A program made the translations under genes and the position numbers. A DNA stretch of 64,000 nt. Source: Candidatus Falkowbacteria bacterium (GTDB lineage: Bacteria > Patescibacteriota > Patescibacteriia > XYB2-FULL-38-15). Under the pieces are notes generated by a model. That model had not been told where the DNA came from, did no database searches, and saw nothing but the letters and a program-made list of their open reading frames with translations. The stretch spans positions 591 to 64,590 of the forward strand of contig JACRNW010000016.1 in assembly GCA_016214745.1 (NCBI GenBank), given 5' to 3'. This document shows, piece after piece, positions 1 to 64,000 of the stretch (position 1 is its first letter; each line of letters begins with the position of its first letter).

Positions 1-210
1 CAAGAGAGTTCTCAAAAAATCCAAAGCTCCGGCATGAGTTTGTTAACGGAAAAAATCCTAAAAGAATTTCCCGGCGGGGAGATCAAAAAAGTTAAACCAA
101 AACAAGATGGCAGTTATGATATTGATTTGATGTATAACGGAGTAAGTTATAAAATAAAAACAGATTCTACTGGAAATATCGTAAAGAAGGAAATTAAGAG
201 GGAAGATTAA
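1..210 (+). CDS. 3' end of a PepSY-like domain protein (partial, runs off the window start)
   Basis: Frame-1 ORF with stop at 208-210. C-terminus ...GEIKKVKPKQDGSYDIDLMYNGVSYKIKTDSTGNIVKKEIKRED resembles the PepSY motif (YEVEv..dGkeyevyVDA.TGkIlk). Confidence 0.35.
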   Translation, partial: QESSQKIQSSGMSLLTEKILKEFPGGEIKKVKPKQDGSYDIDLMYNGVSYKIKTDSTGNIVKKEIKRED

Positions 211-229
211 AAATCGGCTCAGCCACAAA

Positions 230-282
230 GCGGGCGGGCAAAAATGAAGGGGGTTGGGGGGAAGGAATTTTTGCCCGCCCGC
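230..282. repeat. Perfect 15-bp inverted repeat (GCGGGCGGGCAAAAA ... TTTTTGCCCGCCCGC) with a 23-nt G-rich loop at the left edge of GC-rich island 1
   Basis: Read directly from the sequence. No T-run follows, so it is not a classical intrinsic terminator. Confidence 0.6.
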
Positions 283-594
283 CGAAGCGAAACCCCGCCG
301 CCCTGCTCGTTTGGAGCAGAACCCAGCAAAAAAGTTTTCTTTTCCTTTTAGAAGAAAAAGTCGGGCGCGCGCAAATCAAAAAATGCGAACAAAACTTTTC
401 TGCGGTGTGGCGAGCGTTAGCGAGCGGCGGCGGGGCGGAGCGTCAGTTTCGCTCAAAAAAGGTTCGCGCAAAGTGTATAATTACAGCATTTGTAAACTAT
501 AAGATTTTAAAAAACAGAAACCTAAAATTTCTGTTTTTTTGTTTGCTTTTTAATCTTATTTATTTTAAGATATGGCCAGAAAGGGAGGATAAAA

Positions 595-822
595 ATGACG
601 GAAACCTACCTGACCTTTGGAAAACTCCGAGGAGGTGATAGGTTCATTGTACTTCCTCACAAGGGCTTCTGCTTCCGCTTGCACGGCGACTACGTGAAGG
701 CGAGCTACCTCTTCATGAAACTTGAAGGGCGGCTCGGGCGACGGCGCGCCAACGCCATCCGCCTCCGCAACGGCAGGACCTGCGTGATCCCGAACTTCGC
801 GCCCGTTATCCGGATCAGATAG
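595..822 (+). CDS. Hypothetical small protein (75 aa) in the GC-rich island
   Basis: ORF preceded by a strong RBS, GAAAGGGAGGATAAAAATG. High GC. No recognisable family. Confidence 0.35.
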   Translation: MTETYLTFGKLRGGDRFIVLPHKGFCFRLHGDYVKASYLFMKLEGRLGRRRANAIRLRNGRTCVIPNFAPVIRIR

Positions 823-853
823 CGGCCAAGGCCGCGAAGAAAGGAAGGAAGAG

Positions 854-1750
854 ATGGGAGAACGGAACTTTCGTGAAATGCTCGAGGCCAAGTGGGCCGA
901 AGGCAAGTTCGTCTGCGTCGGACTCGACACCGAACTCGGGAAGATTCCTGAGTGCGCACGCGTGAGCGGCGGCAGCTGGGAGCAGATCGTCCACTACAAC
1001 ATGGTGATCGTCCACGTGACCCGAGACCTCGTGTGCGCCTACAAGCCCAACTTCGCCTTCTACTTGAGGCACGGCGAAGAGGGGCTGCGCGCGCTCCACC
1101 AGACCATCGGCCAGATCCACAGCGTCGCGCCCGACGTTCCGGTGATTCTGGACGCCAAGGTTGGGGACATCGGCAACACGAACGTCGGATACGTGCAGAT
1201 GGCCTTCGACAGTTTCCGCGGGGAAGCGGACGCCATCACGGTCCATCCGTACCTCGGCGCCGAAGCGCTCGCGCCGTTCCTCGAGCTCGCCAACAAGGGC
1301 GTCGTCGTTCTCTGCCGCACCTCGAATCAGGGTGCGGGCGAATTCCAGGACCTGCCGATTTCGCTGGCCGAGCAACGCCGTGCTCTCGAGAAGCACCTCG
1401 GCCGCGAGATTCCCGAAGGGTCCATCCCACTCTACCAGTACGTGGCCTACCGCGTGGCCGCCCACTGGAACAAGCGCGGCAACTGCGCGGTAGTCGTCGG
1501 CGCGACCTACCCCGAAGAACTCGGGAAGGTCCGAGAGATGGTCCGCGACCTGCCGATCTTGATCCCGGGCATCGGCGCGCAGGGCGGCGACGTCGAGAAG
1601 ACGGTCCGGGCTGGCAAGGACAGCCGCAGCCGGGGAATGATTGTGAATTCCTCGCGCGGCATCATCTTCGCTTCGCCTCTTTCGGACTGGCCGGAAGCGG
1701 CTCGCCGCGAGGCGCAGAAGCTCCACGACGCGATCAACCAGAACCGGTAG
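854..1750 (+). CDS. pyrF: Orotidine-5'-phosphate decarboxylase, type 2 (long form)
   Basis: Motifs VGLD, KPNFAFY, DAKVGDIGNT and 298 aa length match type-2 OMP decarboxylase. RBS GAAAGGAAGGAAGAGATG. ~65% GC. Confidence 0.9.
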   Translation: MGERNFREMLEAKWAEGKFVCVGLDTELGKIPECARVSGGSWEQIVHYNMVIVHVTRDLVCAYKPNFAFYLRHGEEGLRALHQTIGQIHSVAPDVPVILDAKVGDIGNTNVGYVQMAFDSFRGEADAITVHPYLGAEALAPFLELANKGVVVLCRTSNQGAGEFQDLPISLAEQRRALEKHLGREIPEGSIPLYQYVAYRVAAHWNKRGNCAVVVGATYPEELGKVREMVRDLPILIPGIGAQGGDVEKTVRAGKDSRSRGMIVNSSRGIIFASPLSDWPEAARREAQKLHDAINQNR

Positions 1751-1763
1751 AAGGAGGAAAACC

Positions 1764-2387
1764 ATGAACGGACAAGAAGCCCTGGAAATCTTCAAGCGGA
1801 CCGGCGCGCTGCTCGATGGCCATTTCGTCTTGGCCTCTGGCCGACACAGCAGCCAGTACATGAACAAGGACGCCGCCTACTCTTTCCCCGACCAGATCTC
1901 ACTCCTCTGTTGGGGCATTGCTCTGGCTTTCGTCGATCGGCAGATCGACGTGGTCGCCGGACCGGAGAAGGGCGGCATCATCCTCTCGCAGTGGGTCGCT
2001 CACCACCTGATCGAGTCGGCCGGCCAGAAGATGCGGGCGGTCTATGCCGAGAAGGACGGTGATGGTTTCGTCTTCCGGCGCGGCTACGACAAGCTCGTGG
2101 CCGGCAAGCGCGTTCTTCTCGTGGAGGACGTGATCACGACCGGCGGCTCCATCAAGAAGGTCATCCAGGCGGTGCGGACGCTGAACGGCAACCCGATCGG
2201 CCTTGGCGCGCTCTGCAACCGTGGAGGAGTGGATGCCGAAGCACTCGGTATCCATGATTTCCACGCACTGGCCAACCCCACTTTCCTGACTTGGGGTGCC
2301 GACGACTGCCCGCTCTGCAAGCAAGACGTGCCGGTGAACACGGAGGTCGGCAAGGGCCGCGAGTTCCTGGCCCGACAGGGTCGGTAG
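1764..2387 (+). CDS. pyrE: Orotate phosphoribosyltransferase
   Basis: PRTase motif VLLVEDVITTGGS and overall OPRT-like sequence. 14 nt downstream of pyrF. High GC. Confidence 0.9.
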   Translation: MNGQEALEIFKRTGALLDGHFVLASGRHSSQYMNKDAAYSFPDQISLLCWGIALAFVDRQIDVVAGPEKGGIILSQWVAHHLIESAGQKMRAVYAEKDGDGFVFRRGYDKLVAGKRVLLVEDVITTGGSIKKVIQAVRTLNGNPIGLGALCNRGGVDAEALGIHDFHALANPTFLTWGADDCPLCKQDVPVNTEVGKGREFLARQGR

Positions 2388-2422
2388 TCGCAATCGCAGT
2401 CGCTACACATCAAGGAGGGAAC

Positions 2423-2455
2423 GGCGTGGACCACAAAGACCACGCCGCTTTTTTT
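2423..2455 (+). terminator. Rho-independent terminator after pyrE
   Basis: Stem GGCGTGG / CCACGCC (7 bp) followed by a T7 run. Confidence 0.7.
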
Positions 2456-9249: not shown

Positions 9250-9341
9250 TAAATATGGGGTTGACATTTCTTGAAATTTATGTAAGAATAAAGTGTTTGG
9301 TTCGTTTGCACCCCAAGAGAGGGGTGAAAGGAAGGATATAG

Positions 9342-10091
9342 ATGGAAACCAAACTGGTGGCCTTGACCATCTGTTTCGTGATCGGCGGATGCGGTCTGGA
9401 TACGGGCGGCATGGGCGAGCCGGACGACGGCGCTCTGCCCGACATCGTGGAAGAGGGCGAGCCGGACATCGGCCCGGACGAAGCCGCGACCGACGTTTCC
9501 GAAGCCGACCAAGAAGACGTGGCCGAGGATGCGGGCGAAGACGAAACGGCGGACGAGACCGAGCCCGACGAAGCATCTCCCGACGAGGCAGCCGAGGACG
9601 TCACAGACGTCCCCGACGAGACCGAGCCGGAAGACGCGGACGATGCGGCCGACGAAGCGGGCGATGAAGCAAGCGACGAAGGCGGCGAGACCGAGGACGG
9701 CGAACCCGACCCCTGCGCTCTGCCGGAAATCCCCGCCACGGGAATTTTCGTCTGGTACTGCTTCGACTACGACTTGTCCTCTCCGATGTCTCTCGAGTTC
9801 CAAGCCGAACGGGCCGGAATTCCAGTCGTGAGCTGGCGTGCTGCCCCTGGTTGCTCGACAACTCGCGGGCGGCGGCTTGAATGCACGCTCACGCCGACGG
9901 TGTGGGATGCCACCTACATCTTCAACATTCGGCTCGACCCGGGTGTTGGGATCGGGTGGTCCTGCGGGCCGGAACTTCTGGCCATCTGGGGTACGCCGCA
10001 TGTTTGGCTGGACGGAGTGGAGTTGACCGTCACATCAGTGACGAACGGCGACGGCGGCTGCAACCACAGCTTCCTGACACCCTCGCTGTAG
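9342..10091 (+). CDS. Acidic lipoprotein with a D/E-rich low-complexity region (GC-rich island 2)
   Basis: Signal peptide with lipobox (LTICFVIGGC), a long Asp/Glu-rich spacer, a C-terminal Cys-containing domain. RBS GAAAGGAAGGATATAGATG. ~68% GC. Confidence 0.6.
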   Translation: METKLVALTICFVIGGCGLDTGGMGEPDDGALPDIVEEGEPDIGPDEAATDVSEADQEDVAEDAGEDETADETEPDEASPDEAAEDVTDVPDETEPEDADDAADEAGDEASDEGGETEDGEPDPCALPEIPATGIFVWYCFDYDLSSPMSLEFQAERAGIPVVSWRAAPGCSTTRGRRLECTLTPTVWDATYIFNIRLDPGVGIGWSCGPELLAIWGTPHVWLDGVELTVTSVTNGDGGCNHSFLTPSL

Positions 10092-10118
10092 CCCAAGGAG
10101 GTCCTTCAGCGAACCACC

Positions 10119-10152
10119 GGCGGAAAGCCCCTGCTTTCCGCCGTATTTTTTT
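10119..10152 (+). terminator. Intrinsic terminator after the GC-rich lipoprotein
   Basis: GGCGGAAAGC ccct GCTTTCCGCC followed by T7. Confidence 0.8.
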
Positions 10153-10559
10153 ACTTAAAAACTGGACAAAACCGGCGAAACGTGATATAATATAATAATG
10201 TAAAAGAAAAATCTGGCTTTTTTACTTTTGTTAGCCGAAATTAAAAGGCAAACAAAGTAAAAAGAGGGGGACCTTTTATCAATCGTTCTTTTTAAAAATG
10301 CCTCGTCTTCCAGACGGGGAAAAATTAAAACAAAAACAAAAAATAAGGAGCCGTTGAGCTCTTTATTTTATTATTCCGCCGAAGGCGGAATGATAAAAAG
10401 ATACGTGAGCGAGCGGTAGCGAGCGAACTCCTCTCAAAAGAGGATTCCAAGGAGGTTACTCCTTTGGTCGGAGGACGGAACATATTTATCACCGCCCGAC
10501 GAAACCTCTTTATTTTGTTATGAGAAAATGTTAAGTTAATATCGTAACTTGCTCAGAGC

Positions 10560-10646
10560 GGAGGAGTGGCCGAGCGGTTGAAGGCGCGGGTCTCGAAAAC
10601 CCGTATACTGGAAACAGTATCGTGAGTTCGAATCTCACCTCCTCCG
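10560..10646 (+). tRNA. tRNA-Ser (anticodon CGA), class II with long variable arm; CCA not encoded
   Basis: Hand-folded cloverleaf. Acceptor GGAGGAG/CTCCTCC. Anticodon loop CTCGAAA (CGA). Long variable arm GTATACTGGAAACAGTATC. T-arm GTGAG TTCGAAT CTCAC. Discriminator G. Confidence 0.85.
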
Positions 10647-10689
10647 CTTTGGGCAGATTAAAAACTAATATCCCATCCATTTCGCCAGT

Positions 10690-11805
10690 ATGAAAATCCA
10701 CTCCTGGCATCTCATTATCGGTTCAATAATTTTATTTTTGTTTGATTTTTTAATTTTAGCCAATAAAACAATTTTCCCGAACCAACAGATGAAAGGAATT
10801 TCCACGGTTATCGCCCTTGCCTGCGCTCTGGTTTTTGTGACAGGAATTATGTGGGCTATATTTGAACCGATTGCCAAAAGAATAAAGTCGCGCCCGGCCG
10901 CCTCCGCCGCTCCCCCGATGATGGCGTCGGAGAAAAGCCGGCTTGCTTTGACCACGCTGGAAATTGTGTTTAATCGGCTTTTTGCGGTTTTGTTGGTTCT
11001 ATCCGCTGTCCCGCTTATTTTGAATCCACTGACCATTCCGACAATCATCATCTTTATAATTTTTGCCCTTTTTCTCTGGTTTAGCAAAAAATACCATCTG
11101 TCTGCCAATATTATTTTTTTAATTTTCGCTTTGGGCATTTATTTTATTCAAATTCCACCCATCGCCTGGGGAATTTTCCGCGGTTTAAAAGAGTTCCGGA
11201 TCGGCGGTTTTGACTTTCATCAATTTACCCTGCTCTTTTGCGTCGCACCACTTATTTTTATTTCTTTTTCAGTTAGAAATATTTTGGGCAATATTTTTGC
11301 TTACTTTAAAACCAACGTTTCGCGTAATGCTTTTTATTTGATTTCTCTATTTATTGTTTTTGTAACGCTCCCGGCTTATCCGTTATTGGACAGTATAAGA
11401 CTGCGCGACCGGACGAGGAACGTGAACACCGCAGTTGGCGGAGATTTGTCTCTCGTTTATACGCAGCAGTCACTTACTTTTATAGATCGTTATAATATGG
11501 CGGGAAATTTCACTTCAAATTTTGATTCCTCTACTAAAAAATACATTTACCATTTACAACTGCTTGAACCACTTAAAAAAGACATTCAATTTACGAAAGT
11601 TGAAACTGACGGAGAAAAAATTAATTTTACAACTGACAGCCGGATAGCATGTTCAAATTGTCAAAAGGATATGAGTGATCCGTACGGCCTAATTTTTCCA
11701 GCCGGTAAAGATATTGATTTTACTATTGTGAACGACTGGCTAATTAAGACCATCAATTTCACTGAGCCAGGAGATAAAGTAGACGAATTTATTTTTTGGA
11801 AATAA
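10690..11805 (+). CDS. Hypothetical polytopic membrane protein with a C-terminal soluble domain
   Basis: 371 aa, about 6 N-terminal TM helices. No recognisable family. Confidence 0.5.
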   Translation: MKIHSWHLIIGSIILFLFDFLILANKTIFPNQQMKGISTVIALACALVFVTGIMWAIFEPIAKRIKSRPAASAAPPMMASEKSRLALTTLEIVFNRLFAVLLVLSAVPLILNPLTIPTIIIFIIFALFLWFSKKYHLSANIIFLIFALGIYFIQIPPIAWGIFRGLKEFRIGGFDFHQFTLLFCVAPLIFISFSVRNILGNIFAYFKTNVSRNAFYLISLFIVFVTLPAYPLLDSIRLRDRTRNVNTAVGGDLSLVYTQQSLTFIDRYNMAGNFTSNFDSSTKKYIYHLQLLEPLKKDIQFTKVETDGEKINFTTDSRIACSNCQKDMSDPYGLIFPAGKDIDFTIVNDWLIKTINFTEPGDKVDEFIFWK

Positions 11806-11815
11806 ATTTTCTAAT

Positions 11816-12151
11816 ATGAAATTTCTGTTGTCAATAAATTATATTGTTTGGCTGATAATCTCCGCTCTGTTTTTCGCGGTTGGAGATTTTTTATCAAAAA
11901 AATTTGCCCTGAACCCGAAAATAATCTACGTGGTTTTTGTTCTTCTGGCTTATTCTCTATGTTCTCTTACGTGGCTACCGGCAATCCTGCAAAAAAATCA
12001 GTTATCAATTGTCGGAACTATCTGGTCTGTCATGACTCTTATAGTCACAATCGCCATCGGAGTTATAATTTTTAATGAGGAATTGAGCGCTGTCGGCGTC
12101 ATCGGTATAATTGTGGCTTTTATTTCTATAATTCTATTATCGCTCGCGTAA
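11816..12151 (+). CDS. 4-TM small transporter, SMR/EamA-like (DMT superfamily) fold
   Basis: 111 aa with four hydrophobic helices. Size and topology match SMR/ArnE-like half transporters. Confidence 0.45.
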   Translation: MKFLLSINYIVWLIISALFFAVGDFLSKKFALNPKIIYVVFVLLAYSLCSLTWLPAILQKNQLSIVGTIWSVMTLIVTIAIGVIIFNEELSAVGVIGIIVAFISIILLSLA

Positions 12152-12162
12152 AGACTAAACAG

Positions 12163-15436: not shown

Positions 15437-16321
15437 TTGTCACAATTTATGACTCAAAAAATTCGCAAAGTTATCATCCCGGTGGCCGGTTACGGCACAA
15501 GATTTCTCCCGGCAACCAAAGCTCAGCCAAAAGAAATGCTGCCGATCGTTGATAAACCGGTCATTCAATATATTGTTGAAGAAGCCGTCGCTTCGGGCAT
15601 TACTGACGTAATCTTGGTAACCGGCGCTTCCAAACGCGCCGTGGAAGATCATTTTGATTACAATTTTGAATTGCAAAATTGGCTTAAAAAACAAGGCAAG
15701 GAAGAAATCCGCCAGGAATTAAAAAATATCGCTGACATGGCGAATTTTATTTATATCAGACAAAAAGGCCCGTACGGCAACGCCACGCCGGTTATGAATT
15801 GTCAGCAAGTCGTCGGCAATGAACCGTTTGCCGTTCTCTCGGGTGATGATTTGATTGTAAATGGAACAAAACCGCGCTTGAAACAATTAATTGAGGCTTA
15901 TGAAAAATATGGTGATCCGGTGATTACGGCCATTAAAGTCACCAAAGAAGAAACTAGAAAATACGGCATGCTTGATGCGCAAAAAATAGAAAAAAATATT
16001 TATCAGGTCAAAAAAATCGTGGAAAAGCCCGGGCCGGAAAAAGCGCCCTCGCTTCTTGCCACGCTTTACGGCTATGTTCTAACACCGGACATTTTTGATG
16101 AACTGGAGAAATTAAAACCCGGCGCCGGCGGAGAATTATGGCTGCCGGAAGCCATCGCCGAACTTCTTAAAAAACGTCCCATTTACGCTTCCGAAGTTGA
16201 CGGCACTTATTATGATGCTGGATCAAAAATCGGTTGGCTCAAGGCCAATGTTGACCTCGCCCTGCAACGACCAGATCTAAAGCCAAGTTTTTCCAAATAT
16301 TTGAAAAAATTAAAAATATAA
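15437..16321 (+). CDS. galU: UTP--glucose-1-phosphate uridylyltransferase
   Basis: [31 protein letters not shown], the canonical GalU N-terminus. Confidence 0.9.
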   Translation: [294 protein letters not shown]

Positions 16322-16323
16322 AT

Positions 16324-16432
16324 CTACAAATTACAAATTTAGTACAAATGTACAAATTTTGATAAATATTTATTAACAGATAAAACCGCTTAGTGATTAT
16401 TTGTATATTTGTAAATGATTTGTAATTCGTAG
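16324..16432. mobile_element. MITE-like element, copy A: ~35-nt terminal inverted repeats (CTACAAATTACAAAT..TACAAAT[A/G]TACAAAT) around a ~40-nt spacer
   Basis: Left arm 16324-16358, right arm 16398-16432 in inverted orientation. Near-identical copy at 51650-51757. Confidence 0.55.
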
Positions 16433-16438
16433 TAATTT

Positions 16439-17833
16439 ATGAACAAAAAAACTTTAGCTGTTTTTCTTCTTCTCGCTTTCATTATTACCGCTGGTCCAAT
16501 CTGTAAAGGCACGCCGGTGGCGGTTCAAGAAGCGATGAAGCCCGTCAGCCTCACTTATTGGCGAGTTTTTGACGATCAAGATGCTTTTGATGAAATCATC
16601 GCTGCCTACAAAGCAATCCACCCGAATGTTTCCGTCACTTATCGCAAACTTCGCATGGAAGAATATGAAGAAACTCTTCTAAACGCTTTGGCTGAAGATC
16701 GCGGACCAGATTTATTTTCCGTTCCCAATACTTGGGTTCGCGAATATCAGACAAAAATTCTGCCAATGCCAAAATCTATCACTCTGCCTTACCAGGTAAC
16801 AACGGGCACAATCAAAAAAGAAACAACAGTTGAACTTCGAACAACCGCGACTCTTTCTCTCCGGGCCCTCCGGACTGATTTTATGGATCAAGTGGCAAAA
16901 GATGTTGTATTAAAATACCAAGCCAATCCGGAACAGCCGGCCGAAGATAGAATTTATGGTTTGCCGCTTTATCTTGATACCTTGGCGCTTTTTTACAATC
17001 GCGATACTTTAAACGCCGCGGGCATTCCCGAACCGCCCCGGAGCTGGACCGAATTTCAAGAAGACGTAAAAAAAATTGCTAAAATTGACAAACAAGGAAA
17101 TATTTTACAATCCGGTGCGGCGATTGGCACGGGCACAAACGTTGAACGAGCCCCGGACATTCTTTCACTTTTAATGATGCAAAACGGCACGGCCATGACC
17201 GATGAGGCCGGCAATGCCACTTTCGCCAACATGCCCCCCGGCTCTACTCTTACAAATCCTCCCGGCGAAGACGCTTTAGGTTTCTACACCGACTTTGCTT
17301 CGCCTTACAAAGAAGTCTACACCTGGAACGGCAACATGCCAGATTCACTTGAAGCTTTTAGCACGGGGCGAGCGGCTTTTTTCTTCGGCTATTCTTACCA
17401 CATTCCTCAAATTAAAAATCTCGCGCCCAAATTAAATTTTGCCATTGCTAAAATTCCGCAAATTGAGGGCAACCAGGAAATAAATTTTACCAATTATTGG
17501 GTGGAAACGGTTTCTGAAAAAACAAAAAATCAAAATGAGGCCTGGGATTTTCTCCAGTTCGCCGCCAAAGCGGAAAACGCTGAAAAATATTTAGCAAAAA
17601 CCAAAAAACCGACCGCTCTTCGTTCGCTTGTGGCAAGCCAAGCGGAAGATCTTGATCTTGCCGTCTTTGCTTCAGAACTTTTAACGGCCAAATCCTGGTA
17701 TCAGGGCATGGACGCGCCGGCCATGGAAAAAATCTTTAACGAGATGATTGAAAATGTGGTAGCCGGCACGCAAACCCTGAAAGAAGCGATTGGTTTAGCC
17801 CAAGGAAGAGTTAACCAGACTATTCGGCAATAA
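16439..17833 (+). CDS. Extracellular solute-binding protein (ABC-type, sugar family 1-like), secreted
   Basis: Signal peptide. 464 aa with SBP_bac_1-like composition and motifs. No adjacent permease or ATPase. Confidence 0.7.
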   Translation: MNKKTLAVFLLLAFIITAGPICKGTPVAVQEAMKPVSLTYWRVFDDQDAFDEIIAAYKAIHPNVSVTYRKLRMEEYEETLLNALAEDRGPDLFSVPNTWVREYQTKILPMPKSITLPYQVTTGTIKKETTVELRTTATLSLRALRTDFMDQVAKDVVLKYQANPEQPAEDRIYGLPLYLDTLALFYNRDTLNAAGIPEPPRSWTEFQEDVKKIAKIDKQGNILQSGAAIGTGTNVERAPDILSLLMMQNGTAMTDEAGNATFANMPPGSTLTNPPGEDALGFYTDFASPYKEVYTWNGNMPDSLEAFSTGRAAFFFGYSYHIPQIKNLAPKLNFAIAKIPQIEGNQEINFTNYWVETVSEKTKNQNEAWDFLQFAAKAENAEKYLAKTKKPTALRSLVASQAEDLDLAVFASELLTAKSWYQGMDAPAMEKIFNEMIENVVAGTQTLKEAIGLAQGRVNQTIRQ

Positions 17834-20676: not shown

Positions 20677-20682
20677 TTTAAA

Positions 20683-21795: not shown

Positions 21796-21819
21796 TACTT
21801 TAAATTAATTAAATATTTT

Positions 21820-22245: not shown

Positions 22246-22254
22246 ATTAAAAAT

Positions 22255-45554: not shown

Positions 45555-46071
45555 ATATGACAAACTCCAATTTCCCTCTACCCTTCGGGGGGACAGAAAA
45601 AATAAAAAACACAGCGCCTAGTTCCCTCTACCCTTTGGGGAGAGGGTTAGGGTGAGGGGGCAAGAGGAGGGACAATGAAAAGAAACAATATCCCAAAATG
45701 CCGAACGCTACGGAGAAATCAAACCGACGCCGAGCGAAAATTATGGTCAGCAATCCGCGATCGCCAACTTGGTGGAATAAAATTTAGAAGACAATTTCCC
45801 GTTGATAAATACATTCTAGATTTTTACGCGCCGGAATATCACCTCGGCGTTGAGGCCGACGGCGGGCAGCATTTTGAAAACCCGAGCCAGAAATACGATG
45901 AAACAAGAACAACGGAATTAGCCAAACACGGAGTACGGATATTAAGATTTACCAATTTAGAAATATTAAAAAACCTGCGAGGAGTTTGTGAAAAGATTCT
46001 GGAAGTTACAAAAGAGCAAACCCCCTCACCTCAATCCTCTCCCCGGCGGGGAGAGGAGGAATAATCGCCGC
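45555..46071 (+). mobile_element. ~516-bp insertion carrying a DUF559 endonuclease-like gene, flanked by a 25-bp direct repeat duplicating the 3' end of the PBP1A gene
   Basis: Direct repeats CCAAT(C)TCCGTGACGGTGTTGTAAAA at 45529-45554 and 46072-46096 (24/25 identical; the first ends the PBP1A ORF). Internal GGGAGAGGG-type palindromes at both ends. Confidence 0.6.
45675..46064 (+). CDS. DUF559 (Vsr/restriction-endonuclease-like fold) domain protein
   Basis: YILDFY...LGVEADGGQH...HGVRILRF, the DUF559 signature. The C-terminal tail is encoded by the palindromic repeat. Confidence 0.7.
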   Translation: MKRNNIPKCRTLRRNQTDAERKLWSAIRDRQLGGIKFRRQFPVDKYILDFYAPEYHLGVEADGGQHFENPSQKYDETRTTELAKHGVRILRFTNLEILKNLRGVCEKILEVTKEQTPSPQSSPRRGEEE

Positions 46072-51628: not shown

Positions 51629-51649
51629 AAAATTTTTACAAATTATTAA

Positions 51650-51757
51650 CTACAAATTACAAATCATTTACAAATATACAAATAACGGGGAAAGAGTTTC
51701 GCTAGATTAACGTGTTGGCAAGGATTTGTATATTTGTACCGAATTTGTAATTTGTAG
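51650..51757. mobile_element. MITE-like element, copy B (same TACAAAT inverted-repeat family as 16324-16432)
   Basis: Left arm CTACAAATTACAAATCATTTACAAATATACAAATA (51650-51684) is 34/35 identical to the reverse complement of the copy-A right arm. Its own inverted partner lies at 51724-51757. Confidence 0.55.
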
Positions 51758-51768
51758 TATTGTAATAA

Positions 51769-53549: not shown

Positions 53550-53949
53550 TGTTGTTTTAGAAAATTAGATTAGGTTTTCTTTGGTAAGTTTAAAGAAAAT
53601 TCATTTTTTTGTCAACGGCAAAAGAGGAAATCCACAAAATATCCACAGGGGGGCTAATCCTCGAATAAACCCCAGCACCAAAGCCCGGAGATGGGCGGAT
53701 ATTAATCAATATATAAATCACGGAAACGCCTGCGGCTTTCTTTTACTAAAATTGTTTGTTTGGAGAAAGGCTTGGTGCGGGGTTACCGCGCCCGACTTCG
53801 CCTTGACACGTAATTTGTGAGTAATTATGGATAGTTCTTTAAAGAAACTAATAAACAATTTTATTGGAAAAATGGCGAAGTCAAGGCGGGCGGGTTAACT
53901 GCCAAAAAATTTTCCGTGGCAAGGCCTTGAAAATTTTTGGCCAGTTAAT

Positions 53950-53980
53950 AAAAAAAGCCTCACGATGTGTAGTCGTGGGG
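53950..53980 (-). terminator. Intrinsic terminator of GC-rich island 4 (minus strand)
   Basis: CCTCACGA tgtgtag TCGTGGGG stem, followed on the minus strand by T6. Confidence 0.6.
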
Positions 53981-53986
53981 CGTGGT

Positions 53987-54247
53987 TTAGAAGGAGAGCG
54001 GCTTGCCGCACAGCAGACATTGGCCGGGGTCTGTTCCTCCCGTCGGGTTTCCGAAGCCGCAGTGGGGGCACCTCACGCGGTTCGGCATCTCGGGAGCGTC
54101 TGAGGCGAACAGAAAGTCCACTTCCAGAGATTCTCCCTCAACTTCTCCTTCCGACGGCAGAGAAGTGTCGGGATTGCCGTGGAGAAGCCATGCGCTGATC
54201 GTGGCTTCGTCGGCCGGACAGGGTCTTCTGATTTCCCTTGTGCTCAT
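53987..54247 (-). CDS. Small zinc-ribbon protein (86 aa), GC-rich island 4 gene 2
   Basis: C-terminal CPHCGFGNPTGGTDPGQCLLCGKP zinc ribbon. RBS GTGAGGAGACCATG overlaps the upstream stop. Replaces the 151-aa ORF-track call, whose N-terminus is out of frame with the RBS. Confidence 0.5.
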   Translation of the reverse strand: MSTREIRRPCPADEATISAWLLHGNPDTSLPSEGEVEGESLEVDFLFASDAPEMPNRVRCPHCGFGNPTGGTDPGQCLLCGKPLSF

Positions 54248-54254
54248 GGTCTCC

Positions 54255-54491
54255 TCACTTCCCGACCCGTTCGCGAAACCACAGGCAGAGGGCGTAGAAG
54301 CTCTGCTCGGCTTCGTCGCCCAAAATGGCCCCGAGCGGCAAAGGCCGCCGGCCGCGTTCCGCGACGACGGTTTGGCCAAACGCTCCGCAGCGTTCACGGA
54401 ATTCAATATCCAGTTCCGTTGCCCCGATAAAAAAGTTGGCACGGCGTTGCATTTCGCCGATTTGGCCGATTGCTTCTTCTAGTTCCACCAT
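54255..54491 (-). CDS. Small hypothetical protein (78 aa), GC-rich island 4 gene 1
   Basis: Strong RBS AAAAAGGAGGGAGGAGATG. ~62% GC. Confidence 0.5.
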   Translation of the reverse strand: MVELEEAIGQIGEMQRRANFFIGATELDIEFRERCGAFGQTVVAERGRRPLPLGAILGDEAEQSFYALCLWFRERVGK

Positions 54492-54557: not shown

Positions 54558-54586
54558 AGAATACATGTTTTTAAATTTTTTGTCAA
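54558..54586 (-). promoter_or_regulatory. Candidate promoter (TTGACA-17-TATTCT, minus strand) for island 4
   Basis: Hexamers read on the minus strand, immediately downstream of the 54594-54622 terminator. Confidence 0.4.
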
Positions 54587-61422: not shown

Positions 61423-61438
61423 ATCTCCCAACTAATTT

Positions 61439-61639
61439 CCCCTCCCTTGATGGGAGGGGTAAGGGGAGGGTGAAAAAAATCCCTCGGCGTTTCCGCGCCA
61501 CTCCCTTTTAAAAAGGGAGATAAATTTCACCCCTCACCCCCGCCCGCCACGCAAGCCAGCTTGCTGGCGTTGCGGGCAGGCCAACCCTCTCCCTCAAGGG
61601 GAGAGGGATTTTAATATTTTCTCCCTTTCGAAAAGGGAG
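61439..61639. repeat. Cluster of five GC-rich palindromic hairpins (GGGAGAGGG / CCCTCTCCC family) between trmD and the DGR target
   Basis: CCCCTCCCttgatGGGAGGGG, CTCCCTTttaaaAAGGGAG, CCCGCC..GCCAGCttGCTGGC..GCGGG, CCCTCTCCCtcaagGGGAGAGGG, CTCCCTTtcgaaAAGGGAG. Related copies at 45572-45660 and 46037-46057. Confidence 0.6.
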
Positions 61640-61659
61640 AGTTAGAGAGGGATTTATCC

Positions 61660-61688
61660 TTGACTTTTTATCTAAATCATGTTAATAT
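61660..61688 (+). promoter_or_regulatory. Candidate promoter (TTGACT-17-TAATAT) for the DGR target gene
   Basis: Hexamers read directly, ~90 nt upstream of the ATG. Confidence 0.45.
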
Positions 61689-61776
61689 AAAGCGTTGTCC
61701 TCATGTTGAGGAAACCCTGGGCCACGGGCAGTGGCAAAATGCTTTTCGGGCTTTCAGCCTGGAAGGAGATTCGGTC

Positions 61777-62655
61777 ATGGCAAAGTATCCGAACTGGACC
61801 GGAAGGATCGAGGCGCTTCTGAACGTGCTCGGCGGCGAGGAGGTCGTCGACGCGCTCATCGCCGGCACCAAGGTCGCGGAGATCAAGGATGCCGTGCGGA
61901 TGCTTTTCGACCGCCACGGTCGGTGCATCCCGCCGCAGGGCATGAAGGCCGAGGTGGTGGACGCCAATCGCGACTTCCACCTCACCCAGCCGGAAGTGAA
62001 CTTCGCCGAACGCTTGGCGCGCCTGACGCGCTTCCTCACGAACGGCGAGACGCCGATCTCGGCCGAGGAGTTCGAGCGGCGCACGGCGGAAATCGTGCGG
62101 CGGGTCAAGGGCGACAAGCTCTTGGTCAACCTCTTCTGCGGCGTGTTTCTGCCGATCGTTCTGCCGCAGATCGCGATCGGCGACTACGGCAAGACGCTCG
62201 ACCTGACGCTCCTCCCGGCCGTGGGCCGCGCCTACGAGGCCGAGTTCGCGGGCCGGAAGTTCTACAACCACCGGCAGGGAACGCTCGCGGGCGAGGTCAC
62301 GGTGGTGAAGGGCAGCCGGCACGAGGCGCTCGTCGCGGCAATCGCGGCGGGTCCGGTCGTGGCGCTGTATTTCCCGACCGCCCTGCAGGGGTTCTCCATC
62401 CCGGCGGACCTCGAGCAGATGGCGATGCTTCCCGACTTCGTTCTGCCCACCGGCGCTCTGGAACCGGCCGCGGCCATGGTCATGTACCCGGATGTGCTGG
62501 CTCGCGATGGCCAGACGCCCGGGCTGGACTGCGCGGCGCTGTCCTGGCGGGGCGGTTCGCTCTACTTCAAGGCCGACGGCGACAACCTCCTCTTCAACGG
62601 CGGGGGTCTGAGCGCCCGCGGCAACTACTCCGGCGGGCTCGTCGTCCTCGGGTAG
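61777..62655 (+). CDS. DGR target (variable) protein. GC-rich; the C-terminal ~36 codons form the variable repeat
   Basis: Start at MAKYPNW with RBS GGAAGGAGATTCGGTCATG. The 3' 108 nt (62545-62652) match the template repeat at 63048-63155 except at 16 adenine positions. C-terminus ...SWRGGSLYFKADGDNLLFNGGGLSARGNYSGGLVVLG. No signal peptide seen. Confidence 0.8.
   Translation: MAKYPNWTGRIEALLNVLGGEEVVDALIAGTKVAEIKDAVRMLFDRHGRCIPPQGMKAEVVDANRDFHLTQPEVNFAERLARLTRFLTNGETPISAEEFERRTAEIVRRVKGDKLLVNLFCGVFLPIVLPQIAIGDYGKTLDLTLLPAVGRAYEAEFAGRKFYNHRQGTLAGEVTVVKGSRHEALVAAIAAGPVVALYFPTALQGFSIPADLEQMAMLPDFVLPTGALEPAAAMVMYPDVLARDGQTPGLDCAALSWRGGSLYFKADGDNLLFNGGGLSARGNYSGGLVVLG
62545..62652 (+). repeat. 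DGR variable repeat (VR)
   Basis: 92/108 identical to the TR. All 16 mismatches are A in the TR versus G/C/T here (mostly G). Confidence 0.85.
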
Positions 62656-62734
62656 TGTCTGCCACTCGGATTTCGGTTCCTTGTTCCTTGGATCAAGTCC
62701 CTTGAGGATTTGGTTCTCGGACGCTTGACTTCGA

Positions 62735-62772
62735 CGGGGAACACGACTAAACATCGTGCGCCCCGTTTTTTT
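62735..62772 (+). terminator. Intrinsic terminator after the DGR target gene
   Basis: CGGGGaaCACGActaaacaTCGTGcgCCCCG followed by T7. Confidence 0.75.
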
Positions 62773-63047
62773 ATTTTCAAAAACGTGATAAAGTATAAAT
62801 TGAAAATAGGCTAATGCACTGCAGTTCATGGATTGCAGTCGCCGAAATCCTGCGTTTTTCACAATGTATCAGAGTCCGGCAGTTTACGGATTGTCGGAGC
62901 GCATACAGAAGACGCGGTAAACGATGTAGACACTGCTTACTTTTCCCTGGTGTCCAAATTGGGACCAAATAAAATTCAGGAGACGTAAATCTCGAAAAAT
63001 ATCGGGACTATTTCTCCGGTGCATCCAGATGGGGGAAAATAAATAAA

Positions 63048-63155
63048 TGGCAGGGCAATTCGCTCTACTTCAAGGCCAACGACGACAACCTCAACTTCAA
63101 CAACAGGAATCTGAACGCCAACGACAACTACTCCGGCGGGCTCGTCGTCCTCGGG
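63048..63155 (+). repeat. DGR template repeat (TR), non-coding and AAC-codon rich
   Basis: Homologous to the VR. In the VR frame it reads W Q G N S L Y F K A N D D N L N F N N R N L N A N D N Y S G G L V V L G, AAC/AAT codons at the variable sites. No start codon, and a stop lies in-frame upstream (62970-62972). Confidence 0.85.
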
Positions 63156-63165
63156 AGTGTCTTCT

Positions 63166-63203
63166 CCAAAAAAATAAGAGAGTTCCCTTGGGGGAACTCT
63201 CTT
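63166..63203 (-). terminator. Intrinsic terminator of avd (minus strand); 12-bp perfect hairpin immediately 3' of the TR
   Basis: AAGAGAGTTCCC ttgg GGGAACTCTCTT, followed on the minus strand by T7. May also serve as the structured element flanking the TR. Confidence 0.7.
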
Positions 63204-63209
63204 GCAATA

Positions 63210-63551
63210 TTAGAGCGTCTTAATCCAACCGCCGAACATCCGGCCAATTTCTTGGATAGTGGTCTGGAGCGTAAGATATTTTTTCTGATCAAGAATTTTT
63301 AATTCTCGCAGGACGCGGATAAAAATTTTTAGCGTTTCAAATTTGTTATTGGCTGCCAAAAGTATCGGCCGTTTCGCTTCTTTCGGAAGATAACTTGTTT
63401 CAAGAAGCAATTCCAGCACGGCAATTATATATTCTTCGCATTTCGCGCCCAAAGCGTATTTATCTTTTTTGGGAAATAATTCAAGAAAATTATAGTATGT
63501 TTTATAAAGTTCAATCGTTTTTTTCAAAATCGGCACCTCTGCCCGTTCCAA
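63210..63551 (-). CDS. avd: DGR accessory variability determinant (Avd, four-helix-bundle protein)
   Basis: FPKKDKYALGAKCEEYIIAVLELLLETSYL ... LQTTIQEIGRMFGGWIKTL closely parallels Bordetella bAvd (...QVLIAEVGRILGSWIA). Apparent TTG start. Divergent from the RT gene. Confidence 0.75.
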   Translation of the reverse strand: MERAEVPILKKTIELYKTYYNFLELFPKKDKYALGAKCEEYIIAVLELLLETSYLPKEAKRPILLAANNKFETLKIFIRVLRELKILDQKKYLTLQTTIQEIGRMFGGWIKTL

Positions 63552-63563
63552 ACGTGAGGCGCT

Positions 63564-63573
63564 GGGGGGGGGG
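63564..63573. repeat. G10 homopolymer tract in the 44-nt avd/RT divergent intergenic region
   Basis: Read directly (GCTGGGGGGGGGGTATTG). Confidence 0.7.
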
Positions 63574-63595
63574 TATTGAAGGAATTATTTTGCAT

Positions 63596-64000
63596 ATGTT
63601 TGTAATATTAGAAAATTTATTTTTTGCTTGGGACGAATTTAAGAAAGAAAAACAGAAGAAAGTAGACGTGATGGAATTTGAACGGCATCTTGAGGACAAT
63701 CTTTTCCGGCTGTACGAAGATCTTAACAGAAAGATTTATTTTCATCAACCTTACGAAACATTTTATATTTATGATCCAAAGTTTCGAGTGATTAACAAGG
63801 CGGCGGTGCGCGATCGTGTTGTACATCATTTTGTTTTTAAATATCTTGAGAAAATTTATCAGCCGCTTTTTATTCATCAGTCTTATGCATGTCAAAAGGG
63901 TAAGGGCACGCATCTTGCCGTCCGAGATTTAAGTCGGGCGTTGAGAGCGGTTACGGGAAATTATACAAAGCCGGTTTGGGCGCTCAAAATGGATATTAAA
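63596..64000 (+). CDS. DGR reverse transcriptase (N-terminal 135 aa; continues beyond the window)
   Basis: Hand translation: MFVILENLFFAWDEFKKEKQKKVDVMEFERHLEDNLFRLYEDLNRKIYFHQPYETFYIYDPKFRVINKAAVRDRVVHHFVFKYLEKIYQPLFIHQSYACQKGKGTHLAVRDLSRALRAVT...ALKMDIK. RT domains 1-2 (DPKxRxI..AxxRDRVVHH; SYACxKGKGTHxA; xDIxK) are characteristic of DGR RTs. Confidence 0.85.
   Translation, partial: MFVILENLFFAWDEFKKEKQKKVDVMEFERHLEDNLFRLYEDLNRKIYFHQPYETFYIYDPKFRVINKAAVRDRVVHHFVFKYLEKIYQPLFIHQSYACQKGKGTHLAVRDLSRALRAVTGNYTKPVWALKMDIK

Follow-up and report, generated by a model that had tools for sequence, protein, structure and literature searches.

Messenger RNAs without a Shine-Dalgarno (SD) sequence depend on an unstructured start region (PMC3121790), and horizontal gene transfer in Patescibacteria proceeds mostly within the phylum (PMC12455944). 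No earlier description of a GC-rich, SD-led accessory gene class was found in the papers searched. The window analysed here, a stretch of 64,000 nucleotides of a Candidatus Falkowbacteria contig with an overall GC content of 44.4%, carries nine genes in five transcription units, ca. 8.6% of its length, which depart from the native genes in both composition and start signals. We tentatively interpret them, with about an even chance of being right, as members of a long-lived accessory gene class of this kind which is resident in Patescibacteria and whose GC excess does not derive from one foreign donor.

Composition and expression signals of the five islands

The GC-rich blocks extend over positions 631–2470 (island 1, 62.8% GC), 9311–10160 (island 2, 63.2%), 22651–23690 (island 3, 63.4%), 53941–54470 (island 4, 59.4%) and about 61700–62750 (island 5, 66–70%). 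Their nine genes have a GC content of 0.58–0.68 and a GC content at third codon positions (GC3) of 0.65–0.91, compared to GC3 values of 0.30–0.56 for the native genes of the window. An SD-like motif 5–10 nt 5′ of the start codon precedes all nine island genes but only one of 53 native genes (Fisher p = 4.9e-10), in line with an earlier note on this DNA which had described five GC-rich, SD-led islands among native genes mostly lacking SD sites. The comparison of codon and k-mer usage suggested there revealed a signature which the islands have in common and which differs from that of the native genes. Relative synonymous codon usage (RSCU) correlates at 0.47–0.89 when one island is compared with another, at 0.09–0.34 when islands are set against native genes and at 0.94 when the native set is split into two halves, and the composition-corrected 3-mer correlations are 0.50–0.94, 0.23–0.61 and 0.94–0.98, respectively. 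For the −30 to +30 region at the start codon, a folding energy of −12.1 kcal/mol was predicted for island genes versus −5.2 kcal/mol for native genes (p = 7e-5), and this stronger predicted folding would explain the SD sites of the islands.

A promoter scan detected sigma-70-like sites in the right orientation at four of the five islands and none at island 1. The terminator scan returned a hairpin with T-run at islands 2 and 4 and a hairpin on the plus strand only at island 3; the terminators of islands 1, 3 and 5 were read by eye from the sequence. The block edges match the transcription unit from the promoter −10 element to the terminator.

The variable cargo of island 1

The start of island 1, previously placed at about position 225, has to be shifted, as positions 225–560 form a stretch of their own, non-coding, rich in hairpins and of about 51–53% GC, and the GC-rich unit proper begins at the SD site near 580. 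The upstream region (540–594, plus strand, read from the sequence) combines AT-rich DNA with the SD (AAGGGAGG). Gene 1 (595–822, plus strand; SD GGGAGG; GC3 0.76) encodes a 75-aa protein which matched no Pfam, NCBIfam, PHROG or PADLOC family and which has a homologous 83-aa gene at the equivalent slot of L002 (L numbers denote fetched loci). Gene 2 (854–1750, plus strand; SD AAGGAAGG; GC 0.64, GC3 0.85) is pyrF, coding for an orotidine-5′-phosphate decarboxylase of type 2, as indicated by matches to Pfam OMPdecase (1.8e-25) and to TIGR02127 (216.8 bits, exceeding its cut-off). Gene 3 (1764–2387, plus strand; SD GAAGGAGG; GC 0.63, GC3 0.81) codes for a pyrE-like orotate phosphoribosyltransferase with a Pfam Pribosyltran match and a TIGR01367 score of 142.7 bits, slightly under the cut-off of 150.25. 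The unit is terminated by a terminator-like hairpin GGCGTGG...CCACGCC followed by a T-run (2423–2455, plus strand, read from the sequence), which escaped the scan because its loop is longer than 8 nt and 3′ of which the GC content is back at the native level.

In this slot upstream of ruvB, the cargo varies between relatives behind a preserved AT-rich upstream region and SD; positions 486–589 are 90% identical (blastn) to positions 9302–9405 of L001, in which the downstream cargo differs. The pyrF-pyrE cargo varies and moves about within the phylum. It occurs as a GC-rich, SD-led insert in differing neighbourhoods in L140/L141, L142 and the window, has a fully host-like GC3 in L136 and is of native composition in the uniformly 59%-GC contig L081. 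This distribution resembles what ordinary transfer and later amelioration would leave and lends weight, together with the dissimilar island 1 cargo of close relatives, to a repeated import of the islands from a reservoir of high GC content within the Patescibacteria gene pool and their subsequent slow amelioration, which we consider possible but doubtful. GC-rich lineages of ca. 56–62% GC might form the reservoir, as might a plasmid or phage of high GC content that has escaped sampling; the GC excess would then be a legacy of recent arrival, and the SD would move with the family and be kept as needed. GC-rich Patescibacteria are in fact found among the fetched loci (e.g. L031, L034 and L046), and the published predominance of transfer within the phylum (PMC12455944) is also compatible with such an import. 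However, the reservoir itself was not found; the nearest non-self homologues are likewise islands in low-GC hosts, and searches of IMG/VR as well as of PHROGs and PADLOC returned nothing.

Islands 2, 3 and 4 and the reality of the islands

Island 2 is preceded by an AT-rich promoter-like site (9261–9289, plus strand, scan) consisting of TTGACA, a 17-nt spacer and AAGAAT with an extended −10 TG. Its single gene (9342–10091, plus strand; SD AAGGAAGG; GC 0.65, GC3 0.76) encodes a lipoprotein of 249 residues, which has a lipobox Cys, an acidic linker of low complexity and a C-terminal domain rich in Cys, and is followed by an intrinsic terminator with an 11-bp stem containing 8 GC pairs and a T-run (10118–10153, plus strand, scan). 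Island 3 is read from the minus strand, with a promoter-like site at 23734–23762 (TTGACG, 17 nt, TACAGT, with TG; scan) upstream of two lipoprotein genes. Gene 1 (23244–23651, minus strand; SD GGGAGG; GC3 0.75) encodes 135 residues (MRLFAALFVMFAMSGC...) and gene 2 (22714–23247, minus strand; SD GGAAGGGAG; GC 0.65, GC3 0.80) encodes 177 residues. The 13-bp GC-rich hairpin at 22652–22692 (minus strand) is a bidirectional terminator with T-runs on both strands, the plus-strand hairpin stemming from the scan and the minus-strand T-run from reading the sequence. Island 4, also on the minus strand, has a scanned promoter-like site at 54558–54586 (TTGACA, 17 nt, TATTCT), a gene for a 78-aa protein (54255–54491, minus strand; SD GGAGGGAGGAG; GC3 0.65), a gene for an 86-aa protein which carries a zinc-ribbon-like CxxC...CxxC motif at its C-terminus (53987–54247, minus strand; SD GTGAGGAG; GC3 0.67) and a terminator-like hairpin with subsequent T-run (53951–53977, minus strand, scan). 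Neither protein matched a family in the protein-family database searches.

Related loci are present in seven independent MAGs, among them the complete chromosome OZ246416.1. As to the distribution in related genomes, which the earlier note had proposed to inspect, islands 2 and 3 keep both their synteny and an equally high GC content in independent MAGs, one of which is the complete chromosome, and the cargo of island 1 is variable. Syntenic orthologues of island 2 occur in L001, L002, L003, L004 and L006, and L143 carries island 3 in synteny, with SD sites and GC3 values of 0.75–0.76; a 134-aa lipoprotein gene stands there at the syntenic position of gene 1. The islands are thus genuine parts of the chromosome, as argued earlier. 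The abrupt GC changes in a contig of a short-read MAG could arise from high-GC reads mis-joined into a low-GC contig or from bin contamination, but an artefact of this kind is extremely improbable. Each island has native DNA on both sides in one contig, the edges are expression signals, the upstream region and SD of island 1 are common to L001, and islands 2 and 3 are found in unchanged positions in assemblies made independently in different studies, one of them the complete chromosome. Moreover, the VR of the GC-rich gene in island 5 pairs with a TR in AT-rich DNA (see below).

The common codon and k-mer signatures of the five islands and the SD, promoter and terminator style, which resembles that of typical SD-using bacteria, might also be taken as marks of one high-GC donor lineage beyond Patescibacteria, for instance from Actinobacteria or Proteobacteria and perhaps the episymbiont's own host, from which the genes arrived with the SD style of the donor. 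We judge this very unlikely. The best-hit taxonomy, a check likewise raised before, assigns all named homologues of PyrF (the best at 60–66% identity), of the DGR target and of the island 3 lipoprotein to Patescibacteria, and these are mostly genomes of low or medium GC content; no donor was found. The family of the 177-aa lipoprotein comprises 10 proteins among 5.8 billion, and that of the DGR target about 72, the sources being Patescibacteria or unnamed in both cases. Furthermore, islands 2 and 3 are syntenic across genomes with flank dS values of at least 0.6–2.7 and hence old, and the island promoters are AT-rich like native DNA. Nor does the SD serve as a donor mark, since core genes of GC-rich Patescibacteria likewise lack it and since it is retained where the gene is at host GC (L136, L134).

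The DGR cassette of island 5 and the pattern across Patescibacteria

The promoter-like site of island 5 (61660–61688, plus strand, scan) consists of TTGACT, a 17-nt spacer and TAATAT with TG. The downstream DGR target gene (61777–62655, plus strand; SD GGAAGGAG; GC 0.68, GC3 0.91) encodes 292 residues identical to the Ca. Falkowbacteria protein HZB93_04425; its structure model is confident and gave no PDB or BFVD match. The last 36 codons form the variable repeat (VR; 62545–62652, plus strand), which differs from the template repeat (TR; 63048–63155, plus strand) at 16 of 108 nt, all 16 mismatches being located at TR adenines. Between them, a terminator-like hairpin ACGGGG...CCCCGT with a nested hairpin inside and a subsequent T-run (62734–62772, plus strand, read from the sequence) was missed by the scan because of its long loop, and the GC content falls 3′ of it. 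The TR is a lone 56%-GC patch within AT-rich DNA, next to avd, the accessory variability determinant (63210–63551, minus strand; Pfam bAvd E = 1.1e-17; GC 0.38, no SD), and the reverse transcriptase (RT) gene (63596–64000, plus strand; GC ~0.37), which runs past the window end. The N-terminal 135 residues of RT contained in the window are 59% identical to the RT of L087, itself with a Pfam RVT_1 match. The DGR is therefore real and, as proposed earlier, its VR/TR pairing ties island 5 to AT-rich DNA.

Across Patescibacteria, the SD frequency climbs with the GC3 excess from 6% to 75% (1311 rough gene calls in 76 loci), while a reverse-complement control stays flat at 0–3%. The DGR target is more GC-rich than the rest of the locus in all 36 contexts (mean +0.15) and is preceded by an SD in 19 of 22 cases, in contrast to RT and avd, which have a host-like GC3 (mean difference +0.02) and lack an SD (0/11 and 0/13). 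The range of target GC3 from 0.39 to 0.92 is predicted by the import scenario as stages of decay. However, the hosts in all 36 contexts have a GC content of 54% or less, and the target alone is GC-rich in every cassette despite a co-divergence of RT and target identities (r = 0.905, 210 pairs) that reaches about 55% and 45% amino-acid identity.

Persistence and decay of the GC excess

The island 2 orthologues in the five genomes have GC3 values of 0.65–0.73 compared to 0.36–0.53 for the flanking genes. Their synonymous third positions are at 70–105% of saturation, and no amelioration was seen across the six genomes. Because it is kept in these near-saturated orthologues and in cassettes with RT and avd of host composition, the GC excess is considered as a long-lived property of the families. 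Under the import scenario, a back-of-envelope relaxation estimate of simple decay requires an impossible starting GC3 > 1, and allele replacement at a syntenic site requires donors with the same flanks, i.e. low-GC relatives.

A different behaviour was found for the best-sampled target clade, in which 208 S>W and 119 W>S third-position changes were counted (ratio 1.75). Stationary simulations gave a ratio of 1.13 ± 0.17, none of 100 reaching the observed value, and internal as well as terminal branches show the S>W excess. An equilibrium GC3 of 0.46–0.51 is implied, which is near the RT/avd values, and the inferred root has a GC3 of ~0.69 compared to 0.55–0.65 at the tips. In this clade the GC excess is decaying rather than held, as expected after import. 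Both alternatives of the earlier note are partly upheld: repeated transfer agrees with the mobility of pyrF-pyrE and the GC loss of this clade, but no single donor was found, and a gene class held at a distinct composition is the better fit for islands 2, 3 and 5, which keep synteny and a high GC content in relatives. The data point to a mixture of the two.

GC-biased gene conversion offers a further route to a high GC content, as accessory and fast-evolving loci such as surface lipoprotein genes, DGR targets and swap-prone slots may recombine far more often than core genes, e.g. after natural transformation, and GC-biased heteroduplex repair would raise their GC, the SD being a secondary adaptation to structured mRNAs. 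A GC3 > GC1 > GC2 profile together with GC-rich amino acids is expected from regional fixation bias in a GC-rich genome, and the island genes exhibit this profile and a GARP amino-acid usage of 0.31–0.39 versus 0.22–0.27 for native proteins. Island 2 also evolves fast (dN/dS about 0.22–0.28 versus 0.04–0.12 for its flanks) and falls into two allele groups which do not track RuvB identity, L001 (96% identical to the RuvB of the window) grouping with L006 (90%); the slots with swapped cargo attest recombination as well. Nevertheless, we regard gene conversion as an improbable cause. To our knowledge, the required GC3 shift of +0.3 to +0.45 far exceeds the effects reported for bacteria, recombination tracts are not expected to end at promoter −10 elements and terminators, cargo swapping recombines the flanks and leaves the gene interior untouched, and the polarised counts of the target clade run in excess towards S>W, the opposite of the expected W>S.

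A scenario for a resident GC-rich gene class

For the preferred reading, an accessory gene class resident in Patescibacteria, we propose the following scenario. The islands would belong to a flexible, Patescibacteria-restricted gene pool comprising surface lipoproteins, the DGR target, pyrF-pyrE salvage genes and small proteins, which carries two coupled traits in many lineages, a GC content (chiefly GC3) well over that of the host and an SD. Each unit is built from a native-style AT-rich promoter, a GC-rich 5′UTR with canonical SD, a GC-rich coding sequence and a hairpin terminator, and is placed between core genes of ~44% GC without SD. The AU-rich start regions of core mRNAs are presumably unstructured and so allow initiation without SD, and the structured start regions of the GC-rich mRNAs might make these dependent on SD/anti-SD pairing. 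The GC excess might result from a gene-specific fixation bias towards GC, most likely because selection acts on the structure of the mRNA or on the way it is translated. Gene content turns over by recombination within the phylum which swaps the cargo at conserved slots, and the GC excess is decaying in some lineages. With respect to the pairing partner, the 16S 3′ end in the Falkowbacteria locus L008 reads GGATCACCTCCTT and has the CCUCC tail.

Composition and translation signals of the GC-rich islands

Against a GC content of 44.4% for the whole window, five blocks of about 59–70% GC stand out (631–2470, 9311–10160, 22651–23690, 53941–54470 and about 61700–62750). Sequence and ORF reading placed nine genes in them: island 1 (+ strand) encodes a 75-aa protein of unknown function (595–822), PyrF (854–1750) and PyrE (1764–2387), island 2 (+) an acidic lipoprotein (9342–10091), island 3 (−) two lipoproteins (23244–23651 and 22714–23247), island 4 (−) proteins of 78 and 86 aa (54255–54491 and 53987–54247) and island 5 (+) the target protein of a diversity-generating retroelement (DGR; 61777–62655). 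Every island consists of one transcription unit, 0.6–1.9 kb in length, and the extent of the GC-rich segment is that of the unit. The island genes have a GC of 0.58–0.68 and a third-codon-position GC (GC3) of 0.65–0.91, compared with a GC3 of 0.30–0.56 for the native genes in the rest of the window. A Shine-Dalgarno (SD)-like motif at normal spacing precedes all nine island genes (9/9) versus only one of the 53 native genes (Fisher p = 4.9e-10). Both the presence of five GC-rich islands in a low-GC window and their SD-led character among mostly SD-less native genes were thus correctly described in the earlier note. The per-island codon-usage and k-mer comparison proposed there revealed one signature shared by the islands and distinct from the native genes: RSCU values correlate at 0.47–0.89 between islands, at 0.09–0.34 between islands and native genes and at 0.94 between native halves, and composition-corrected 3-mer correlations follow the same ordering.

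The promoters and terminators ascribed to the islands were partly recovered by scans, which gave promoter-like sites in the correct orientation for islands 2–5, the promoters being AT-rich, and terminators for islands 2 and 4, the hairpin at island 3 being reported on the + strand; for islands 1, 3 and 5 the terminators were taken from sequence reading. The start of island 1 had to be moved from about 225 to the SD near 580, where the GC-rich unit begins, since the stretch 225–560 is non-coding, hairpin-rich and, with about 51–53% GC, distinct from it. Short GC-rich hairpins with SD-like and anti-SD-like arms (GGGAG/CTCCC type) pack this stretch as well as 10280–10480, 23880–24180 and 61430–61655; an Rfam search of these hairpin-rich intergenic regions gave no family at the gathering threshold and none above chance at a relaxed one.

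Conservation of the islands in related genomes

A RuvB-anchored scan yielded six close relatives from independent studies (89–96% RuvB identity), one of them a complete 886-kb chromosome. Five of the six carry island 2 at the syntenic position, with a GC of 0.57–0.63 and a GC3 of 0.65–0.73 compared with 0.36–0.53 for the flanking genes, and island 3 was found again in another metagenome-assembled genome (MAG; L143) between a T4SS-pilin array and rpoB, with a GC3 of 0.75–0.76 and SD sites. Since islands 2 and 3 are syntenic and GC-rich in independent assemblies, and identical island junctions recur in independent MAGs and the complete chromosome rather than being unique to one assembly, an assembly chimera is excluded and the islands are real, as the earlier note had argued from the DGR. 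The synteny in relatives also excludes a recent acquisition of islands 2 and 3 in the window genome alone. Presence/absence among relatives differs between islands, the cargo of island 1 being variable (L001, L002, L003 and L083) and islands 2 and 3 being syntenic.

Island 2 evolves fast (dN/dS about 0.22–0.28; dS of its flanks 0.6–2.7), and its synonymous third positions are at 70–105% of saturation between genomes. Despite this near-saturation no amelioration of island 2 was seen among the orthologues; they have diverged too far for parsimony polarisation, which was given up. Directly beside island 3, and kept in L143, five or six small tandem paralogous T4SS-pilin (TrbC/VirB2-like) genes are found at 20302–22638 (repeat family D1).

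A variable cargo slot upstream of ruvB

The promoter and SD 5′ of island 1 are conserved in the related locus L001, and the cargo downstream of them is different. The 75-aa gene, pyrF and pyrE of the window are replaced by one 160-aa gene in L001, by 70-aa, 83-aa (homologous to the 75-aa gene), 160-aa and HD-domain genes in L002, and by a 73-aa and an HD-domain gene in L003. The short contig L083 (pyrF with 92% nucleotide identity) carries the end of a GC-rich gene upstream of the same promoter, presumably resembling the C-terminus of purC. A conserved promoter followed by differing sets of short genes is reminiscent of integron cassette arrays, but each gene of the slot has its own SD, a repeat search of the window gave no attC-like family between the cassettes, and ORF reading of the window, L001, L002 and L003 gave no integrase-like gene adjacent to the slot, all of which speaks against an integron array. 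The cargo appears to have been exchanged by homologous recombination acting on the conserved flanks.

The pyrF–pyrE pair is also present as a GC-rich SD-led insert in differing neighbourhoods of three other low-GC genomes, at host-level GC with retained SD in L136, and at native composition in L081, whose contig has a uniform GC of 59%. On account of these varied neighbourhoods and compositions the pair is regarded as mobile within the phylum. The contigs L140 and L141 have identical flanks and the same GC-rich pyrF; pyrE follows it in L141, and L140 instead has another GC-rich gene, hypothetical and oppositely oriented. They provide one more case of a fixed slot with swapped cargo.

The DGR cassette and its target protein

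The variable repeat (VR, 62545–62652) corresponds to the last 36 codons of the target gene and differs from the template repeat (TR, 63048–63155) at 16 of 108 nt, each of them an adenine in the TR (13 A>G, 2 A>C, 1 A>T). VR and TR agree throughout their 3′-terminal 31 nt (CAACTACTCCGGCGGGCTCGTCGTCCTCGGG), a GC-rich and IMH-like segment. The avd gene matches Pfam bAvd (E = 1.1e-17; 64.8 bits at a cut-off of 40), and the N-terminal 135 aa of the reverse transcriptase (RT), the rest of which lies beyond the window end, are 59% identical to the RT of L087 (Pfam RVT_1). The adenine pattern, the DGR-type RT beside the TR, avd and the 3′ VR with its invariant segment identify the element as a DGR, arranged like those of the Bordetella phage BPP-1 type and of CPR bacteria and sharing with known DGRs the restriction of VR/TR differences to TR adenines and the invariant, GC-rich repeat end. 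With VR/TR pair, avd and RT confirmed, the proposed junction of a GC-rich target gene (68% GC) with AT-rich DNA (avd and RT about 37–38%) was substantiated.

As 13 of the 16 changes are A>G, the GC content of the VR is raised. The substitution spectrum usually described for DGRs is a roughly even A>N, from which the A>G-heavy spectrum of the window, a single snapshot, is far removed. A gene-wide depletion of A by DGR-style adenine mutagenesis was rejected as a source of the composition, because A and T are equally depleted at third positions (A3 0.03 and T3 0.06 in the target, with similar values in the other islands).

The target protein (292 aa) is identical to HZB93_04425 of Candidatus Falkowbacteria, as a homology search showed; exact-sequence queries with PyrF, PyrE and RuvB gave no record. 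Its AlphaFold2 model is confident (pLDDT 93.3, pTM 0.85), Foldseek found no match to it in the PDB (best E = 1.7) or BFVD, and HMM searches of the sequence gave no match to solved structures; the only hint of a relationship is to a DUF1566 protein (E = 4.8). Unlike in known DGRs, no C-type-lectin or other known fold was detectable by Foldseek in the modelled target, and it may represent a variable-protein scaffold other than a recognisable C-type lectin.

The leader directly 5′ of the target start codon is alike in distant cassettes, with a similarity reaching past the SD; its consensus, GCCTGAAAGGAGG, covers L084, L089, L097, L099, L104, L105, L109, L114, L125, L133, L134 and positions 61755–61776 of the window. 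In eight metagenome cassettes (L114, L116, L117, L118, L102, L103, L104 and L125) tblastn recovers the RT in two segments, the ORFs measuring about 600–650 nt instead of about 1100 nt, and the gene is intact in their close relatives L115, L099 and L107. The split genes could reflect a recent frameshift, decay or recoding.

Maintenance or decay of the GC excess

A metagenome scan with a 10-sequence alignment of the target family as query provided 47 loci, of which 33, together with L084, L086 and L087, formed 36 target contexts with usable flanks. In every one of them (36/36) the GC content of the target is above that of the remaining locus (mean +0.15), at host GC contents of 0.31–0.54. The RT lies 0.17–0.28 GC below its own target (24 cassettes), an offset found in every family cassette and unlike known DGRs, atypical GC having been reported in a DGR survey only for whole cassettes relative to the host (PMC5758913). 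RT and avd deviate little from the host in GC3 (mean difference +0.02) and lack an SD; of 22 targets, 19 have one. Across 21 cassettes the identity of the RT varies together with that of the target (Pearson r = 0.905; 210 pairs). The DGR cassette diverges as a whole and retains its split in composition all the same.

In our view the GC excess is a long-lasting feature of the gene class, occasionally lost. The main rival explanation is that a GC-rich reservoir within the Patescibacteria, so far unsampled, has renewed it repeatedly, and a net flux of GC-losing changes in one target clade is what the amelioration following such transfers would predict. Fitch polarisation of third positions in this clade (12–16 taxa) counted 208–269 GC-losing (S>W) versus 119–174 GC-gaining (W>S) changes; the ratio of 1.75 was reached in 0 of 100 stationary simulations (1.13 ± 0.17), and the excess is found on internal and terminal branches alike. 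The GC3 drops from about 0.69 at the root to 0.55–0.65 at the tips with an implied equilibrium of 0.46–0.51; the RT, polarised as control, is stationary. A GC decay tied to a broken RT was not found, no difference in target GC3 being seen between loci with intact and split RT. Against renewal stands island 2, in which near-saturated synonymous sites have left the GC excess in place.

A donor of matching composition was not found among the homologues of PyrF, the DGR target and the island-3 lipoprotein. The best PyrF matches reach 60–66% identity and all named ones are from Patescibacteria, as are all named members of the target (about 72 proteins) and island-3 lipoprotein (10) families; the closest island homologues are themselves GC-rich inserts in low-GC hosts. 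With best-match taxonomy pointing to Patescibacteria only, the single high-GC donor lineage considered in the earlier note finds no support. Of the two origins offered there, transfer retains the mobile pyrF–pyrE pair and the decay in the target clade on its side, and a class maintained at distinct composition the persistent offset of island 2 and the DGR targets. A viral or defence origin has no support either, scans of IMG/VR giving no relatives of the target, PyrF or the island-3 lipoprotein, PADLOC giving no hit and a PHROGs search of the islands only a generic phosphoribosyltransferase match.

Coupling between GC excess and SD use

The same partition was observed in the related loci L084, L086 and L087, where core genes lack an SD and hypothetical or accessory genes are GC-rich with AAGGAGG-type sites. 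In a survey of 1311 rough gene calls from 76 loci, the share of genes with an SD motif rises with the GC3 excess over the locus median, from 6% (excess < 0.1) to 24% (0.10–0.15), 44% (0.15–0.20), 54% (0.20–0.30) and 75% (≥ 0.30), the top bin retaining 65% after removal of the target family. A chance origin of the SD from G-rich upstream sequence was rejected on the basis of the reverse-complement control (0–3%). Further members of the class are an HD phosphohydrolase, a PAS-GGDEF protein, a PLP decarboxylase, an aminotransferase, a GNAT protein, lipoproteins and small membrane proteins. High expression with optimal codons was rejected as explanation, because the ribosomal protein and EF-Tu genes of related loci have a host-like GC3 and no SD. 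The SD as hallmark of a GC-rich donor lineage was likewise discarded: core genes of the GC-rich Patescibacteria loci L031, L034, L046 and L081 also lack it, and it therefore belongs to the gene class and not to a donor lineage.

Start regions (−30 to +30 of the start codon) have a predicted folding energy of −12.1 kcal/mol in island genes and of −5.2 kcal/mol in native genes (p = 7e-5), with the same trend across the 76 loci, and the 16S tail of a Falkowbacteria relative is canonical (GGATCACCTCCTT, with CCUCC kept). An unstructured start region is known to be required by SD-less mRNAs (Scharff et al. 2011, PMC3121790), and only 48% of Parcubacteria 16S genes reportedly yielded a detectable anti-SD motif (Tsurumaki et al. 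2022, PMC9297842). GC-rich mRNAs would accordingly need SD pairing and core mRNAs would not. It is conceivable, although we consider it rather improbable, that many Patescibacteria run two regimes in one cell, an SD-independent default for AU-rich core mRNAs and an SD-dependent one for structured GC-rich accessory mRNAs. The latter compartment would include surface lipoproteins, DGR targets and nucleotide-salvage genes, its composition would be actively kept high by selection, and its translation could be switched as a block, for instance via anti-SD availability.

Comparison with known systems

According to the model of Lawrence and Ochman, horizontally acquired islands arrive with atypical composition and subsequently ameliorate; acquired DNA is usually AT-richer than its host. 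The window islands resemble acquired genomic islands in their GC and codon usage unlike those of the host genome, in their accessory or unknown-function genes, in the variable cargo of one slot, apparently exchanged within the phylum, and in the amelioration-type flux of one target clade. In contrast, they are GC-richer than the host and as small as single short units, without an integrase or transposase ORF in or beside them and without flanking direct repeats, two of them are syntenic and still GC-rich near synonymous saturation, and the offset lasts inside DGR cassettes inherited as a unit and is tightly coupled to SD use. A tRNA-Ser about 470 nt downstream of island 2 and a tRNA upstream of the island-1 slot in L001 are suggestive only. 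Horizontal transfer and genomic islands in Patescibacteria have been described (Gios et al. 2025, PMC12455944), in a paper in which the terms "ribosome binding" and "codon usage" are absent, and full-text literature searches found no published link between GC excess and SD use in this phylum.

As in SD-poor bacteria such as the Bacteroidota (PMC3121790), most genes lack an SD, start regions are AU-rich and weakly structured, and a minority carries a strong SD; unlike there, the genes with an SD form an accessory class of their own, GC-rich and distinct in composition. A local rise in GC, strongest at third codon positions and with a matching amino-acid shift, also recalls isochores and GC-biased gene conversion, from which the islands differ by their bacterial context, the scale of a single transcription unit and the available polarised substitutions, which show GC loss instead of gain.

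Patescibacteria (CPR) constitute a large share of bacterial diversity, and their gene expression is, to our knowledge, almost unstudied. A split into an SD-less core and a GC-rich SD-led accessory class, if true, would be a simple computer-scorable genome feature marking flexible, probably host-interaction genes (lipoproteins, DGR targets, salvage enzymes). It would affect gene calling, start-site prediction and the detection of horizontal transfer in Patescibacteria MAGs, where composition-based tools would call such genes foreign or contamination. The split also offers a testable handle on translation initiation in a group in which about half of the Parcubacteria 16S genes reportedly have no detectable anti-SD (PMC9297842). 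DGR cassettes with a GC-rich target and host-like RT, inherited as a unit, are an unusually clean natural experiment on the gene-by-gene determinants of base composition, be it selection, biased conversion or transfer.

Other features of the window

Among genes of native GC, a strong SD (GAGGAGG) precedes only one, a DUF559 endonuclease-like gene (45675–46064). It is bracketed by 36-nt GC-rich inverted repeats (45625–45660 and 46021–46056), an arrangement suggestive of a small mobile or selfish element at 45625–46064. The tRNA-Ser (10560–10647) is followed by about 1.5 kb (10653–12160) coding for a 371-aa protein without a Pfam match and a 111-aa SMR/EamA-like membrane protein. At this position L002, L003, L004 and L006 have shorter, non-matching sequence (about 670 bp in L002), and the segment represents a native-GC insertion adjoining the tRNA. 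Finally, near-identical AT-rich palindromic arrays of TACAAAT/ATTTGTA units (inverted repeats I1, I2, I5 and I9) occupy the intergenic regions 16317–16449 and 51633–51764, 35 kb apart, and could be a regulatory or binding-site motif.
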